Program-made: the position numbers and the translations under genes | Part shown: positions 32,056 through 36,392 of the stretch, in pieces | Layout of the letters: every line of letters starts with the position of its first letter | Position numbering within the stretch: the first letter of the stretch is position 1 | Source: Escherichia phage TH09 | Sequence record: MT446387.1 | Reading direction: 5' to 3' (one strand) | DNA length: 64,000 nt | The notes under the pieces: generated by a model | Told to the model about the DNA's origin: nothing | The model's database searches: none | What the model saw: only the letters and a program-made list of their open reading frames with translations

Positions 32056-32418
32056 ATGAAAGCATATCAAATTCTTGAAGGCACACATAAAGGTACTATT
32101 TATTTTGAAGATGGTATTCAAGCACGAATTATTGTCTCTAAAACCTTTAAAGAGGACTCTTTTGTAGACCCAGAAATTTTCTACGGTTTGCATGCCCGTG
32201 AAATTGAAATTGAGCCACAGCCTACAGTTAAAATTGAAGGTGGTCAACACCTGAACGTTAACGTTCTGCGTCGTGAAACTCTGGAAGATGCAGTTAAGCA
32301 TCCGGAAAAATATCCGCAGCTGACCATCCGTGTATCAGGTTATGCAGTTCGCTTTAATTCTCTGACTCCGGAACAGCAGCGCGACGTTATTGCTCGTACC
32401 TTTACTGAGAGCTTATAA
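32056..32418 (+). CDS. autonomous glycyl radical cofactor (GrcA/YfiD-like)
   Basis: 120 aa; C-terminal half [60 protein letters not shown] carries the glycyl-radical motif RVSGY and closely matches E. coli GrcA (memory). Confidence 0.85.
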
Positions 32419-32639
32419 TGGCAAAGATAATTATTGAAGGTTCTAAAGATGTGCTAAATGCTTTCGCCGAGTGGTTTAGTAATTCAGGCGAACAGCAATT
32501 TAACGAAGCGTGGAATATGGGTGATATTGATGGAATTTATCCTACGACAGAAATTTCTGTTCAGGGATATGGCATTCATGAACCTATTCGTTTAGTTGAA
32601 TATGATTTATGTACTGGTGAGGAAGTCAAATATGATTGA
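32418..32639 (+). CDS. hypothetical protein
   Basis: 73-aa ORF, translationally coupled (TAATG) to the GrcA-like gene. Confidence 0.55.
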   Translation: MAKIIIEGSKDVLNAFAEWFSNSGEQQFNEAWNMGDIDGIYPTTEISVQGYGIHEPIRLVEYDLCTGEEVKYD

Positions 32640-32898
32640 AGATATTAAAGGTTATAAGCCGCATACCGACGAAAAAATCGGTAAAGTAAATGCTATTAAA
32701 GACGCTGAAGTTCGTTTAGGACTTATCTTTGATGCTTTATACGATGAATTTTGGGAAGCATTTGATAGCTGTGAAGATGATGAACTCGCGAAGAATTACG
32801 CTGAAAGCCTCGATCAGTTAACTATTGCTAAAACGAAACTCAAAGAAGCCAGTATGTGGGCTTGTCGTGCAGTGTTCCAACCAGAGGAAAAATACTAA
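32632..32898 (+). CDS. hypothetical protein
   Basis: ATG at 32632 ([11 protein letters not shown]...) with GAGGAAG SD; about 88 aa. Confidence 0.55.
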
Positions 32899-33178: not shown

Positions 33179-33208
33179 GTTTACTTTTCCTCTTGACTGT
33201 GGTATAAT
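33179..33208 (+). promoter_or_regulatory. T4-type early promoter upstream of regB
   Basis: GTTTAC (33179-33184), 18-nt spacer, TGG-TATAAT (33203-33208). Confidence 0.6.
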
Positions 33209-33235: not shown

Positions 33236-33697
33236 ATGACTATCAATACAGAAGTTTTTATCCGTCGAAATAAGCTTCGTCGTCATTTTGAGTCGGAGTT
33301 TCGTCAAATTAACAATGAGATTCGTGAGGCATCAAAAGCAGCAGGGGTCTCATCGTTTCATCTAAAATATTCTCAGCATCTTCTTGATCGTGCAATTCAA
33401 CGGGAGATTGATGAGACATATGTTTTTGAATTATTCCATAAAATAAAAGACCATGTTTTAGAAGTTAATGAATTCCTGAGTATGCCTCCGCGTCCTGACA
33501 TTGACGAGGATTTTATTGATGGGGTTGAATATCGTCCTGGACGTTTAGAAATCACAGATGGAAATCTTTGGCTTGGATTTACGGTTTGTAAGCCTAATGA
33601 GAAGTTCAAAAACCCGTCACTTCAATGCAGGATGGCAATTATCAACAGTCGTCGTTTACCAGGAAAGGCTTCTAAAGCAGTAATTAAAACTCAATGA
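33236..33697 (+). CDS. regB: site-specific endoribonuclease RegB
   Basis: 153-aa basic ORF with GAGGAG SD; size and context match T4 RegB. Assigned from size/position and partial sequence memory. Confidence 0.7.
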   Translation: MTINTEVFIRRNKLRRHFESEFRQINNEIREASKAAGVSSFHLKYSQHLLDRAIQREIDETYVFELFHKIKDHVLEVNEFLSMPPRPDIDEDFIDGVEYRPGRLEITDGNLWLGFTVCKPNEKFKNPSLQCRMAIINSRRLPGKASKAVIKTQ

Positions 33698-33704
33698 GGT
33701 AAGC

Positions 33705-34250
33705 ATGAGAAAAGCACTACTCGCTGGTCTATTGGCCATTTCAATGATGGCACATAGCTCCGAGCATACTTTCAGTAATGTCCAACTCGATAACATGCGT
33801 TACGCGTATCAATTCGGGGAACAGTTTTCTAAGGATGGAAAATATAAAACACACAAAAATATCCACAAGAGCGGATTAGGTCATATAATGGCTGCTATTT
33901 TATGGCAAGAAAGCTCTGGCGGAGTTAATTTAAAATCTAAACCAAAGCATCACGCCTACGGAATGTTCCAAAATTATTTGCCTACTATGCGAGCAAGAGT
34001 TAAGGAACTTGGTTATAATATGACCGATGCTGAAATAAAAAGAATGTTGAATAAACGGTCCAATTCAGCTTCCTGGGCGTACATTGAACTTTCTTATTGG
34101 TTAAATATACATAAGGGCGATATAAGAAAAGCAATATCCTCTTATAATTCGGGATGGAATGTTAAAGCAGGTTCTAAATATGCTTCTGAAGTCCTAGAAA
34201 AGGCTAATTACCTTAAAAATAATAAACTTTTGGAAATAGTAAATGACTAA
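33705..34250 (+). CDS. secreted lytic-transglycosylase-like protein
   Basis: 181 aa with N-terminal signal peptide MRKALLAGLLAISMMAHS; LWQESSG and YNSG motifs reminiscent of SLT-type transglycosylases. Confidence 0.55.
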   Translation: MRKALLAGLLAISMMAHSSEHTFSNVQLDNMRYAYQFGEQFSKDGKYKTHKNIHKSGLGHIMAAILWQESSGGVNLKSKPKHHAYGMFQNYLPTMRARVKELGYNMTDAEIKRMLNKRSNSASWAYIELSYWLNIHKGDIRKAISSYNSGWNVKAGSKYASEVLEKANYLKNNKLLEIVND

Positions 34251-34584
34251 AATTTTGGTTTTATGTATAGGATTAATTTCATTTTCTGCGTTAGCAGATA
34301 CATCATATACTGAAATTAGAGAGTATGTAAACCGTACTGCAGCGGATTATTGCGGGAAAAATAAAGCATGCCAAGCTGAATTTGCGCAGAAATTAATATA
34401 TGCATATAAAGACGGAGAAAGAGATAAATCAAGCAGATACAAAAATGATACACTGTTAAAACGATATGCTAAAAAGTGGAATACCTTAGAATGTTCAGTT
34501 GCGGAGGAGAAAGATAAAGCCGCTTGTCATTCAATGGTTGACCGTTTGGTAGATTCTTATAATCGAGGATTGAGTACTAGATGA
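34243..34584 (+). CDS. secreted Cys-containing small protein
   Basis: 113 aa with signal peptide MTKILVLCIGLISFSALA; four Cys. Confidence 0.55.
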   Translation: MTKILVLCIGLISFSALADTSYTEIREYVNRTAADYCGKNKACQAEFAQKLIYAYKDGERDKSSRYKNDTLLKRYAKKWNTLECSVAEEKDKAACHSMVDRLVDSYNRGLSTR

Positions 34585-35060
34585 TTGTAAAATATATCAA
34601 GGGCGATATTGTCGCCCTATTTCTTCAAGGTAATATTATTGCGCACGGGTGCAATTGTTTTCATACTATGGGTTCAGGTGTAGCGGGTCAATTAGCAAGA
34701 GCCTATCCCAAAATTTTAGAAATAGATAAAACCACTACTGAGTACGGTTCTCGTGATAAATTAGGCGATATGTCTATTGTTTTTAAACATAAACCTAATG
34801 GTTTTGGCATATGTTATAACTTGTATACGCAATACGAACCAGGTCCTAATCTTGATTATGGTGCTTTAGTAAACTGCATGATAGAATTAAATCTACAGGC
34901 AGAAACCCTTTTGTTTAAACCGGTAATTTACATTCCACGCATAGGTTGTGGTATTGCTGGCGGCGATTGGGATAAGGTTTCTAAATTAATCGACATGTTT
35001 ACTCCTGATATTGATTTAATAGTGGTGGATTATGAAAGTACATTACCCGCATCCGTTTGA
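34581..35060 (+). CDS. macro-domain-like protein (ADP-ribose binding/processing fold)
   Basis: 159 aa; KGDIVAL..NIIAHGCN...GSGVAGQLARAYP and IPRIGCGIAGGDW resemble macro-domain GDIT..AIVNAAN..GGGVDGAIHRAAG and ISTGVYGYP motifs (memory). Confidence 0.6.
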   Translation: MIVKYIKGDIVALFLQGNIIAHGCNCFHTMGSGVAGQLARAYPKILEIDKTTTEYGSRDKLGDMSIVFKHKPNGFGICYNLYTQYEPGPNLDYGALVNCMIELNLQAETLLFKPVIYIPRIGCGIAGGDWDKVSKLIDMFTPDIDLIVVDYESTLPASV

Positions 35061-35244
35061 TCCTAAAAACAAAGCAGTAATTATTCGTCAATGGGAACGC
35101 ATTTGCCGTACTAAATGTCCAATTAATAGTCCACATGATGTAGATAAAGACTACATTGGAACATTCGTTGAATATACTTTTATTGATAAGAAAGGTCGTA
35201 AACAACATGTAGAAGAATATTGCTTAAAGGTTACATGGTTATGA
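35032..35244 (+). CDS. hypothetical small protein
   Basis: 70-aa ORF overlapping the macro-domain gene 3' end. Confidence 0.45.
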   Translation: MKVHYPHPFDPKNKAVIIRQWERICRTKCPINSPHDVDKDYIGTFVEYTFIDKKGRKQHVEEYCLKVTWL

Positions 35245-35447
35245 GCCAAACTAGTATTCTTAAAAATGCCCACTGTGAAAAGTGTAAGTGGCCTGTTGTT
35301 TTTGCTTTATGCAACGATGAAATGGCTTGTGATTTCGATTATTGGTGCTATTGTTCTAATAAAGGATGCATCAATCATAAAGGTGAAGGATTTTATTCAG
35401 GATTTTATCCTTATCCTGATTTCGTTAAAGAAGGTAAACCAAAATGA
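35235..35447 (+). CDS. Cys-rich small protein (possible zinc-binding)
   Basis: ATG at 35235 after AAGG (track starts at TTG 35220); about 70 aa with CxxC...CxxxxC...CxC...C pattern. Confidence 0.5.
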   Translation: MVMSQTSILKNAHCEKCKWPVVFALCNDEMACDFDYWCYCSNKGCINHKGEGFYSGFYPYPDFVKEGKPK

Positions 35448-35629
35448 ATAATTTTGAGTTACAATACGAAGTGTTACGTGAGCTTGATAATTTAATTGAA
35501 CTCGCTGTTAATAAAGGTTTTGCCATTGGAATCGGTCAAAAAGATACTGGTCATTTAACTATGGAAATATTTAAGCAAAAGCGAATTATTTTAAAACTCC
35601 TGGAAATTAATATATATGAGTCTGAGTAA
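35444..35629 (+). CDS. hypothetical small protein
   Basis: 61-aa ORF coupled by ATGA overlap. Confidence 0.5.
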   Translation: MNNFELQYEVLRELDNLIELAVNKGFAIGIGQKDTGHLTMEIFKQKRIILKLLEINIYESE

Positions 35630-35801
35630 AGAACAAAAAGATAAATTGTTTGAGCTTATCCATGAACTTCTAGATGAGCATATAGAAGCAAACACTTTTT
35701 ATGATGAATACGGCCCGCTATCTCCAGAACAGCAGGAAGAATTTGCTGATCGGTTTGATAAGAAAGAAAACGAATTAATAGCTTATGTGAATACGCTTTA
35801 A
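35616..35801 (+). CDS. hypothetical small acidic protein
   Basis: 61-aa ORF directly upstream of tk. Confidence 0.5.
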   Translation: MSLSKEQKDKLFELIHELLDEHIEANTFYDEYGPLSPEQQEEFADRFDKKENELIAYVNTL

Positions 35802-35810
35802 GAAGGTGAT

Positions 35811-36392
35811 ATGGCGAGTTTAATTTTTACTTATGCAGCAATGAATGCTGGAAAATCTGCTTCTCTTTTGACTGCTGCACATAATTATAAAGAACGTGGA
35901 ATGAGTGTATTAGTTCTTAAGCCTGCTATTGATACTCGCGATTCTGTCTGTGAAGTTGTTTCTCGCATTGGAATTAAACAGGAAGCGAATATTATTACAG
36001 ATGATATGGATATTTTCGAGTTCTATAAATGGGCTGAAGCACAAAAAGATATTCATTGCGTATTTGTAGATGAAGCTCAGTTTTTAAAAACTGAACAGGT
36101 GCATCAATTAAGTCGAATTGTTGATACATATAATGTTCCTGTTATGGCTTATGGATTAAGGACTGATTTCGCTGGAAAATTGTTTGAAGGTTCTAAAGAA
36201 CTTTTAGCGATTGCAGATAAACTTATTGAACTAAAGGCAGTTTGTCATTGCGGCAAAAAAGCGATTATGACAGCTCGATTAATGGAAGATGGAACACCAG
36301 TTAAAGAAGGTAATCAAATCTGTATTGGTGATGAAATTTATGTTTCTTTGTGCAGAAAACATTGGAATGAATTAACTAAAAAGCTCGGTTAG
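35811..36392 (+). CDS. tk: thymidine kinase
   Basis: 193 aa; P-loop YAAMNAGKS, FVDEAQF, C-terminal CxCG...C zinc motif; same size as T4 Tk. Confidence 0.93.
   Translation: MASLIFTYAAMNAGKSASLLTAAHNYKERGMSVLVLKPAIDTRDSVCEVVSRIGIKQEANIITDDMDIFEFYKWAEAQKDIHCVFVDEAQFLKTEQVHQLSRIVDTYNVPVMAYGLRTDFAGKLFEGSKELLAIADKLIELKAVCHCGKKAIMTARLMEDGTPVKEGNQICIGDEIYVSLCRKHWNELTKKLG

Follow-up and report, generated by a model that had tools for sequence, protein, structure and literature searches.

What does the open reading frame between vs and tk.3 of Escherichia phage TH09 encode, and against what would its product act? The window, meaning the whole 64,000-nucleotide stretch that was analysed (record MT446387.1), is the DNA of a Tequatrovirus. 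An earlier note, made from the letters alone, had placed a macro-domain-like protein at this position and proposed that it reverses ADP-ribosylation imposed by a host defence.

The ORF is present as described, beginning with ATG and encoding 159 residues on the plus strand in the list of translated frames (Table 1), and both motifs quoted as macro hallmarks, KGDIVALFLQGNIIAHGCNCFHTMGSGVAGQLARAYP and PRIGCGIAGGDW, are found in its translation. A chance ORF or a gene on the opposite strand is ruled out: antisense ORFs across the region do not exceed 35 residues, and homologues are abundant (775 at E ≤ 1e-5 in a database search, the best at 1.8e-100; tblastn matches in 2,773 phage records; PHROG 335 at E 1.8e-71). 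A six-frame search of the whole window with the family HMM found no second macrodomain. The start codon shares bases with the stop codon of vs in an ATGA at 34581–34584, which suggests that translation of the two genes is coupled.

Table 1. Features at and around tk.4 of phage TH09, in window coordinates
Feature	Position	Strand	Basis
Sigma-70-type promoter-like site, TTTACT-17-TATAAT with TG, ahead of regB	33180..33208	+	Consensus scan only
regB, endoribonuclease	33236..33697	+	PF10715, 5.9e-69; 99% identity to T4 RegB
vs.1, SLT-type lytic transglycosylase-like, signal-peptide-like N-terminus	33705..34250	+	PF01464, 1.4e-5; 100% to T4 Vs.1
vs, 'valyl-tRNA synthetase modifier', signal-peptide-like N-terminus	34243..34584	+	PHROG 1256, 5.2e-40; 99% to T4 Vs
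Shine-Dalgarno GAGGA for tk.4, within vs 3' end	34565..34569	+	Read from sequence
tk.4 / adfM-type gene, stand-alone macro-domain protein, 159 aa	34581..35060	+	ORF list, Pfam, PHROG, AF2, Foldseek, T4 synteny
G+C-rich hairpin AGGGCGAT-ATT-GTCGCCCT, tk.4 codons 7–13, then U-rich stretch	34600..34618	+	Terminator-like scan
Divergent cassette vs T4, allele replacement confined to tk.4	34615..35035	.	Nucleotide identity to T4
First ADP-ribose-binding loop (predicted), codons His22–Ala35 (HGCNCFHTMGSGVA), with conserved Asn25 and GxG motif	34644..34685	+	Alignment to SCO6735 H24-V25-C26-N27
Gln84 codon CAA, catalytic-Lys position	34830..34832	+	MSA, HMM alignments
Second loop, diphosphate-binding (predicted), glycine-rich, Pro119–Trp130 (PRIGCGIAGGDW)	34935..34970	+	Alignments to BT1257, SCO6735, TARG1
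tk.3 (DUF7202); first 29 nt overlap tk.4 3' end	35032..35244	+	PF23832, 8.1e-39; 96% to T4 Tk.3
Cys-rich 'Phage zinc binding domain' ORF	35235..35447	+	PF23895, 3.3e-29; start codon from JLBYU24 annotation
tk, thymidine kinase	35811..36392	+	100% to T4 Tk

Judged from sequence and position, the ORF is a diverged allele and the positional orthologue of phage T4 tk.4. Gene order is as in T4 (regB, vs.1, vs, tk.4, tk.3 ... tk), and the two Tk.4 proteins are 57% identical across 155 residues (E 1e-69). The surroundings had been read correctly: the interval is bounded by RegB and thymidine kinase; the two upstream proteins described as secreted are those of vs.1 and vs, whose N-termini look signal-peptide-like by eye (MRKALLAGLLAISMMAHS/SE and MTKILVLCIGLISFSALA/DT); and the small downstream ORFs are tk.3 and the Cys-rich PF23895 protein, which has no counterpart at the T4 locus. 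The T4 and TH09 genes occupy the same slot, vs - tk.4 - tk.3, and their products have the same fold, identical residues 1–14 and an identical HGCNCFHTMGSGVAGQL loop; Asn25, Gln84 and the 5' hairpin are also common to both. They differ in the second loop (GAGIGKGNW in T4, GCGIAGGDW in TH09) and in length, the 155 residues of T4 being followed in TH09 by a C-terminal extension of four residues that overlaps tk.3.

The A1pp/macro nature of tk.4 orthologues was published in 2006. In 2025, a transposon screen of T4 on cells with DarTG2 gave tk.4 as its single significant hit, and T4 with the gene cleanly knocked out became sensitive to DarTG2; the gene was named adfM, 'anti-DarT factor macrodomain', in a preprint that presents genetics without biochemistry for the T4 allele (bioRxiv 10.1101/2025.11.20.689424). 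The proposed reversal of host-defence ADP-ribosylation is thereby supported, the T4 orthologue being genetically needed against DarTG2. Because tk.4 has recently been shown to protect T4 from this system, the finding of a macro enzyme is correct yet already known, as the named T4 gene tk.4/adfM. The points added here are a predicted Gln-type active site, the acidic charge and a sharply bounded allele swap.

TH09 Tk.4 is confirmed as a macro domain. The Pfam search proposed earlier gave a match to PF01661 (Macro) of 33.1 bits (E 6.2e-8; profile positions 2–117 of 118), above the gathering cut-off of 22 bits. The AF2 model (pLDDT 94.3, pTM 0.89) displays the three-layer α/β macro fold, and Foldseek aligned it to 184 PDB entries at E ≤ 1e-3, the best 50 of which are macrodomains or enzymes designed on scaffolds that resemble a macro domain, each at a probability of 1.00. 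The top matches are TARG1 (E 5e-10) and Poa1p (E 3e-9), with TM scores of about 0.72–0.82, together with BT1257 and the Taq and Mtb DarG proteins. A profile search of PDB sequences agrees with this order of relatives (BT1257 2e-20, TARG1 4.5e-17, SCO6735 5.7e-16, Poa1p 2e-14, DarG 1e-9 to 1e-11), while MacroD-like proteins and viral Mac1 reach only about 1e-2. The protein is of the ALC1/TARG1-like class, not the MacroD or PARG type, and has no extra domains.

The active site is predicted to be of the SCO6735/BT1257 kind (Gln-type), unlike that of DarG. In the MSA and HMM alignments, Gln84 corresponds to SCO6735 Gln85, a Gln in BT1257, DarG Lys80 and TARG1 Lys84, and lies opposite the Lys of the Mtb DarG 'NFPTK' segment. 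It is Gln in 87 of 88 aligned relatives and Lys in the remaining one. Asn25, which matches DarG Asn22 by numbering and motif position rather than by direct alignment, is kept in 89/89 relatives, as is Gly33; Pro119, Gly122 and Gly124 are invariant. The loops MGSGVAG and GCGIAGG align with the matching loops of BT1257, SCO6735, TARG1 and DarG, and Ala126 stands at the place of TARG1 Asp125, a position that is Ala or Gly in relatives. Residues of SCO6735 were matched through BT1257 as a bridge and the MSA, with queries from BT1257 fixing the SCO6735 numbering; the correspondences are His22 to His24, Gly23 to Val25 (backbone), Asn25 to Asn27, and Gln84 to Gln85. In SCO6735 the Gln is proposed to position the distal ribose while a water molecule does the chemistry (PMC9411070). 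With a Gln-type rather than a Lys-type site, the T-even enzyme would therefore use this less-understood, water-mediated mechanism.

The favoured reading, which we hold at a probability of roughly 0.6, is that TH09 Tk.4 is AdfM, a stand-alone macrodomain that removes DarT2-made thymidine ADP-ribose from phage DNA. DarTG systems halt phage replication by ADP-ribosylation of DNA. Once DarT2, the host toxin, has put ADP-ribose on thymidine of single-stranded phage DNA, Tk.4 would bind this group and would hydrolyse the bond between ribose and base, yielding free ADP-ribose and restoring replicable DNA, so that the DarTG2 defence would fail. Two precedents exist for such chemistry. SCO6735 strips DNA of the thymidine-ADPr made by DarT and can rescue cells from the toxin, and substitution of Gln85 by Ala or Glu (Q85A, Q85E) leaves it inactive (PMC9411070); PhiKZ AdfM, likewise a macrodomain, cleared T-ADPr from oligonucleotides in vitro and is active against DarTG2 (PMC13309987). 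In NCBIfam and PADLOC alike, the best-scoring family for TH09 Tk.4 is DarG, matched over the macro part only. We infer both the DNA de-ADP-ribosylation chemistry and a target for the 57%-identical TH09 allele that is the same as that of T4. Identity with the adfM locus explains the presence of the ORF and predicts that TH09 resists DarTG2.

Several observations stand against a role on DNA. An enzyme that clamps single-stranded DNA would not be expected to have an acidic pI of 5.25, neither of the DNA-positioning lysines of SCO6735 is conserved, and the catalytic Lys of DarG and TARG1, the TARG1 Asp and the DarT-binding domain are all missing. The ALC1/TARG1-like class also includes enzymes for proteins, RNA ends and small ADP-ribose esters, so that the substrate cannot be told from sequence alone.

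The alternative that survives best, although we consider it unlikely, is that the substrate is a small soluble ADP-ribose derivative instead of DNA. Tk.4 would then be an ADP-ribose-1''-phosphate phosphatase like Poa1p, an O-acetyl-ADP-ribose deacetylase, or a hydrolase or sponge for immune signals built on ADP-ribose, Thoeris gcADPR or His-ADPR for example. The processing of NAD-derived signals that the earlier note had offered as a second possibility would be of this kind. Yeast Poa1p (6LFR), itself an ADPr-1''-phosphate phosphatase, is among the best matches in both sequence and fold. Three of its residues are mutated in deposited structures; by alignment, His23 corresponds to the conserved His22, but Ser30 is replaced by Thr29, which is outside the invariant or near-invariant set, and Phe152 by the Ala/Gly position Ala126. 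PHROG 335 and many GenBank records do say 'phosphatase' or 'Poa1p-like', a label that is a transferred annotation. Acidity is more in keeping with an enzyme for small molecules than with one for DNA, and the anti-CBASS sponge gene vs.4/Acb2 is situated 1.7 kb upstream; the sole known phenotype of an orthologue, however, is directed against DarTG2, a DNA-modifying system.

A less probable alternative is that Tk.4 mimics an antitoxin and holds DarT2 or a related toxin in check chiefly by binding it, with catalysis secondary or dispensable. In vitro, DarT is inhibited by the catalytically dead mutants SCO6735 Q85A, DarG K80A and TARG1 K84A, most strongly by that of SCO6735 (PMC9411070), and ICP1 AdfB and RB69 AdfA counter DarT through direct interaction. 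The acidic surface could mimic DNA, and an arms race between proteins would be expected to leave alleles that diverge deeply within sharp bounds while the rest of the backbone stays identical. Against this, the ligand and catalytic positions Asn25, Gly33, Gln84 and Gly122/Gly124 are essentially invariant among about 90 diverse relatives, which argues for selection on catalysis, and the C-terminal DarT-binding domain of DarG is absent (model positions 2–142 of 338 aligned).

Alt and Mod attach ADP-ribose to arginine, and this linkage is cleaved by enzymes of the ARH/DraG type, not by macrodomains; reversal of the Alt/ModA/ModB marks by Tk.4 was rejected on this chemistry. More generally, removal of ADP-ribose from proteins or RNA, be it from substrates of host ART toxins or from marks that the phage itself makes, is the least probable of the three alternatives: the close structural relatives TARG1 and SCO6735 de-ADP-ribosylate Asp/Glu-modified proteins and T-even phages encode ARTs themselves (PMC9503650), but the Lys84/Asp125 dyad that serves TARG1 on protein substrates is missing in TH09, and no phenotype points to protein or RNA targets.

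The difference from T4 is confined to a cassette within tk.4. Nucleotide identity to T4 is 100% through 34614, 73–90% over 34615–34704 and 43–70% at 34705–35033, and returns to at least 87% from 35064. At the protein level, the 57% of tk.4 is flanked by 100% for vs.1 and 99% for vs on one side, and by 96% for tk.3 and 100% for tk on the other. The TH09-type and T4-type alleles occur in over 200 sequenced phages each and segregate within otherwise near-identical Tequatrovirus backbones. The tk.4 of T2 is 100% the T4-type allele and that of T6 has the T4 length of 155 residues; no DarTG2-tested phage carrying the TH09-type allele was found among those checked (T2 and T6). As a sharply bounded hypervariable cassette, tk.4 offers a handy natural system for studying how anti-defence enzymes diversify in specificity.

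The hairpin in codons 7–13 resembles a terminator or attenuator, and a 'terminator' is annotated at the same place in phage NBG1. All eight of its pairs are formed in 17 of 38 distinct tk.4 5' ends, through four stem variants with compensatory changes, and pair counts lie above those of both shuffles and slid controls. The codons within it are locally rare. In a 101-nt RNA context, folding is only marginally better than that of shuffles (z = -1.5), and the case for the hairpin is therefore one of conservation and codon choice, not of energy. The promoter-like site ahead of regB is likely, from its match to consensus, to be the early promoter of the co-directional regB-vs.1-vs-tk.4 run, in a region where the total of promoter-like matches is not above shuffle expectation; as a member of this run, tk.4 is probably expressed early in infection.

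It is tempting to speculate, though the idea is a doubtful one, that the two alleles are arms-race variants in specificity, each adapted to its own DarT2 lineage or ADP-ribosylated substrate (DNA base, RNA or protein), and that the hairpin too may have a function, either as an attenuator that times expression or as a homology anchor for cassette swaps. It would be a corollary of this proposal that T-even AdfM came from stand-alone, Gln-type cellular macrodomains like SCO6735 or BT1257, and not from a captured DarG.

With respect to known systems, the closest likeness at the predicted active site is to SCO6735 of Streptomyces coelicolor (PDB entry 5E3B) and Bacteroides BT1257 (2FG1/2AFC). Both are ALC1/TARG1-like macrodomains, have Gln at the catalytic position and share with TH09 the H-x-C-N motif and a PRIGCG(L/I)AGG-W loop. 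These proteins are cellular rather than viral, are 26–29% identical to TH09 Tk.4, and are basic (pI 9.51 and 8.4) where the phage protein is acidic. The mobile loop of SCO6735 is about 5–6 residues longer and contributes Lys89 and Lys94, both lacking in TH09, and SCO6735 Lys34 is replaced by Ser32. Human TARG1/OARD1 (4J5S) has Lys84 and Asp125 in place of Gln84 and Ala126. DarG (Taq 5M31/5M3E, Mtb 5M3I) has the same macro fold and class and acts on thymidine-ADPr of single-stranded DNA; it differs in its catalytic Lys80, its C-terminal DarT-binding domain and the adjacent DarT. TH09 Tk.4 scores 27.7 bits against the DarG equivalog NF048014, for which the cut-off is 250, over positions 2–142 of 338. 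No DarT gene lies beside tk.4, whose neighbours are vs and tk.3, nor beside the bacterial homologue from Pelagimonas; a second, bacterial-looking homologue was rejected as bacterial, as it sits on a phage contig.

The nearest functional parallel among phages is PhiKZ gp104 AdfM, a chimallivirus DarG2-like antitoxin that is likewise a stand-alone macrodomain countering DarTG2. Like DarG, the PhiKZ protein is of the Lys type, with N23 and K78; it is expressed late and is imported into the phage nucleus (PMC13309987), whereas the T-even protein is of the predicted Gln type and belongs to an early gene block. Counter-measures of this sort are layered in T-even phages: besides AdfA there is AdfN, a NADAR enzyme that acts against DarTG1, and the macrodomain Tk.4/AdfM, which acts against DarTG2. 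To this picture the Gln-type site and the hypervariable cassette of TH09 add something of value, while leaving current understanding in place.

The analysis confirms the ORF of the earlier note and supports its reading as a macro-domain gene: it is the tk.4/adfM locus, already known for its anti-DarTG2 macrodomain, here in an allele that has diverged strongly and whose active site is Gln-type. DarTG2 is a bacterial toxin/antitoxin defence in which DarT2 ADP-ribosylates thymidine in DNA and the antitoxin DarG carries a macro domain.

The ORF lies exactly where the earlier note had placed it, on the plus strand, and its translation contains all the macro hallmark motifs quoted there (KGDIVALF..NIIAHGCNCFHTMGSGVAGQLARAYP and PRIGCGIAGGDW). 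It is clearly a real gene. Its ATG shares bases with the stop codon of the preceding gene (ATGA), a GAGGA ribosome-binding site is positioned 12 nt upstream, and no ORF on the opposite strand exceeds 35 aa. Database searches returned 775 homologues at E<=1e-5, and tblastn against 50,697 phage records matched 2,773 of them.

Features of the tk.4 region, with protein identities to T4
Feature	Position (nt)	Strand	Identity to T4	Remarks
vs.6	32056-32418			short protein; C-terminal glycine-radical domain (PF01228, 2.8e-18)
vs.4	32632-32898			Acb2/Tad1-hairpin-domain protein (PF24729, 9.4e-20)
promoter-like site	33180-33208			extended -10, before regB; consensus scan only
regB			99%	
vs.1	33705-34250		100%	SLT-like
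vs	34243-34584		99%	annotated modifier of cytoplasmic valyl-tRNA synthetase
tk.4/adfM-type macro-domain ORF	34581-35060	+	57%	ATG start; 159 aa; ORF listing
hairpin	34600-34618			8 bp, G+C-rich, then U-rich stretch; codons 7-13 of tk.4
tk.3			96%	
tk			100%	
rI.1			100%	
rI			100%	

Over 2.2 kb, the surroundings of the ORF match Shigella phage ESh17 at 99.7% identity and many Tequatrovirus genomes at 98–99%. Set against T4, the genes run regB, vs.1, vs, the ORF, tk.3, small ORFs, tk, rI.1, and rI; the ORF therefore corresponds to T4 gene tk.4, an orthology we regard as close to certain. The two secreted proteins previously described upstream correspond to Vs.1, which has an SLT transglycosylase domain, and Vs, and the Cys-rich ORFs downstream to tk.3 (DUF7202) and an ORF with a PF23895 zinc-binding domain. 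The N-termini of Vs (MTKILVLCIGLISFSALA/DT) and Vs.1 resemble cleavable signal peptides and are candidates for this role, in the case of Vs apparently at odds with its annotated cytoplasmic function. The vs.4 product belongs to the family of the cyclic-nucleotide sponge that acts against CBASS; vs.4 and tk.4 are two counter-defence genes less than 2 kb apart, flanking regB, vs.1, and vs. The vs.6 product resembles GrcA-type proteins, which serve as a spare part when pyruvate formate-lyase is damaged. From regB through tk, all genes run in one direction and are tightly packed or overlapping, a layout that, together with knowledge of T4, suggests early expression of tk.4. The total of promoter-like sites in the region does not exceed the shuffle expectation.

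The macro-domain assignment of the earlier note is borne out by Pfam (Macro, 33.1 bits against a threshold of 22, with nearly the whole profile covered), and is hardly in doubt given the further matches. A profile of 54 relatives searched against PDB sequences identified BT1257 (2e-20), TARG1 (4.5e-17), SCO6735 (5.7e-16), Poa1p (2e-14), Mtb DarG (1.6e-11), and Taq DarG (1.3e-9), with coronavirus Mac1 reaching only about 1e-2. The AlphaFold2 model built on the same alignment is very confident (pLDDT 94.3, pTM 0.89), and its top Foldseek matches are TARG1, Poa1p, BT1257, and both DarG macrodomains, each with probability 1.00. DarG is the top-scoring family in both NCBIfam and PADLOC, with the match confined to the macro part of DarG and far below the equivalog cut-off. 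A six-frame family-HMM search found no second macrodomain encoded in the window. The tk.4 product belongs to the ALC1/TARG1-like class and consists of a macrodomain alone. A homologue of approximately 40% identity in Pelagimonas phthalicica (L003, 5001-5459) likewise stands alone on the chromosome, and DarT is not among its neighbours at that locus; this single bacterial example is consistent with an origin of the phage family from cellular macrodomains that are not antitoxins.

An A1pp (macro) domain match of tk.4 orthologues was noted in 2006 (PMC1524935), and several near-identical genes are labelled in GenBank as 'macro domain protein', 'Poa1p-like' or 'phosphatase'. In a T4 transposon-insertion screen described in a November 2025 preprint, tk.4 was the single significant gene on a DarTG2-expressing host; a clean knock-out was DarTG2-sensitive, the gene was named adfM, and removal of DarT2-made ADP-ribose from DNA was proposed without biochemistry (bioRxiv 10.1101/2025.11.20.689424). 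The knock-out phenotype agrees with the DarTG2 resistance kept by T4 and T2 lacking adfA and adfN (PMC11825919). PhiKZ gp104, also named AdfM, was independently found to remove thymidine-linked ADP-ribose in vitro and to counter DarTG2 (PMC13309987). The T4 genetics and the PhiKZ activity support the earlier suggestion that the protein reverses defence-imposed ADP-ribosylation.

A sharply bounded allele replacement (34615-35035) is confined to tk.4. Nucleotide identity to T4 is 100% through 34614, then declines, is 43–70% at 34705-35033, and is at least 87% again from 35064. The window-type allele occurs in 278 phage records at >=95% identity and the T4-type allele in 221. T2 carries the T4 allele, and the DarTG2-tested phages therefore all lack the window allele. 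The tk.2/tk.1 stretch directly downstream (35245-35801) is likewise swapped for other small ORFs, namely the PF23895 ORF, a 61-aa ORF without a T4 counterpart there, and a 61-aa ORF 54% identical to T4 Tk.2. Together, the two replacements mark the interval as a local hot spot where cassettes are exchanged.

The homology break falls directly after the hairpin, which recurs in relatives' loci L001 (3020-3038), L008 (1220-1238), L009, L018-L023, L029, L034, L040, and L043, and coincides with a terminator annotated in phage NBG1. All eight pairs form in 17 of 38 distinct tk.4 5' ends, with four stem variants showing compensatory changes: in one, G-C becomes A-T through two synonymous substitutions (AAG to AAA and CTN to TTR), and in another C-G becomes A-T, entailing Ala to Ser. 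In the common variant, only two bases vary, one in the loop and one directly after the stem. All 500 shuffles and all slid controls gave lower pair counts; such figures are inflated by kinship among the sequences, and one of these supplied the structure. The hairpin is built from locally rare C-ending codons; AAG, GGC, GTC, and GCC each make up 8–22% of synonymous usage in neighbouring genes. It is absent from the other genera examined (CC31, KP182, Marfa, Aeromonas and Acinetobacter phages), and the 101 nt around it do not fold with unusual stability (z = -1.5). Possible functions of the hairpin are attenuation, stabilisation of a 3' end or anchoring of recombination.

In the active site, Gln84 aligns with the catalytic Lys of Mtb DarG ('NFPTK') and with TARG1 Lys84, and Ala126 with TARG1 Asp125. 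SCO6735, the one characterised enzyme of the class without the Lys, takes thymidine-linked ADPr off DNA and protects cells against DarT, and its Q85A and Q85E mutants are completely inactive; a water-mediated mechanism has been proposed (PMC9411070). The SCO6735 chain and numbering were recovered with BT1257 as a bridge, and in the joint alignment window residues Gln84, His22, Gly23, and Asn25 correspond to Gln85, His24, Val25, and Asn27. Asn25 is invariant among 89 relatives. Gln84 is conserved in 87 of 88 aligned relatives, which makes the T-even AdfM family Gln-type, a feature not discussed in the preprint (bioRxiv 10.1101/2025.11.20.689424). The one exception (L040, IMGVR_UViG_2974573495_000001) has Lys (NLYTKFRPGP), the residue of DarG and TARG1, which may reflect a natural switch from Gln to Lys or an error in sequencing.

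The DNA-positioning Lys34 of SCO6735 is replaced by Ser32 in the window protein, and the long mobile loop bearing Lys89 and Lys94 is 5–6 residues shorter. The window protein is acidic (pI 5.25; T4 allele 5.9), in contrast to SCO6735 (9.5) and BT1257 (8.4). These differences temper the inference of DNA-glycohydrolase activity and keep two less likely alternatives in play, a small-molecule substrate instead of DNA and binding of the toxin by the tk.4 protein. Removal of DarT2-made ADP-ribose from DNA is nevertheless our main reading for the window allele, with a probability of about 0.6. In its Gln-type site T-even AdfM differs from DarG, and is also unlike PhiKZ AdfM (N23/K78).
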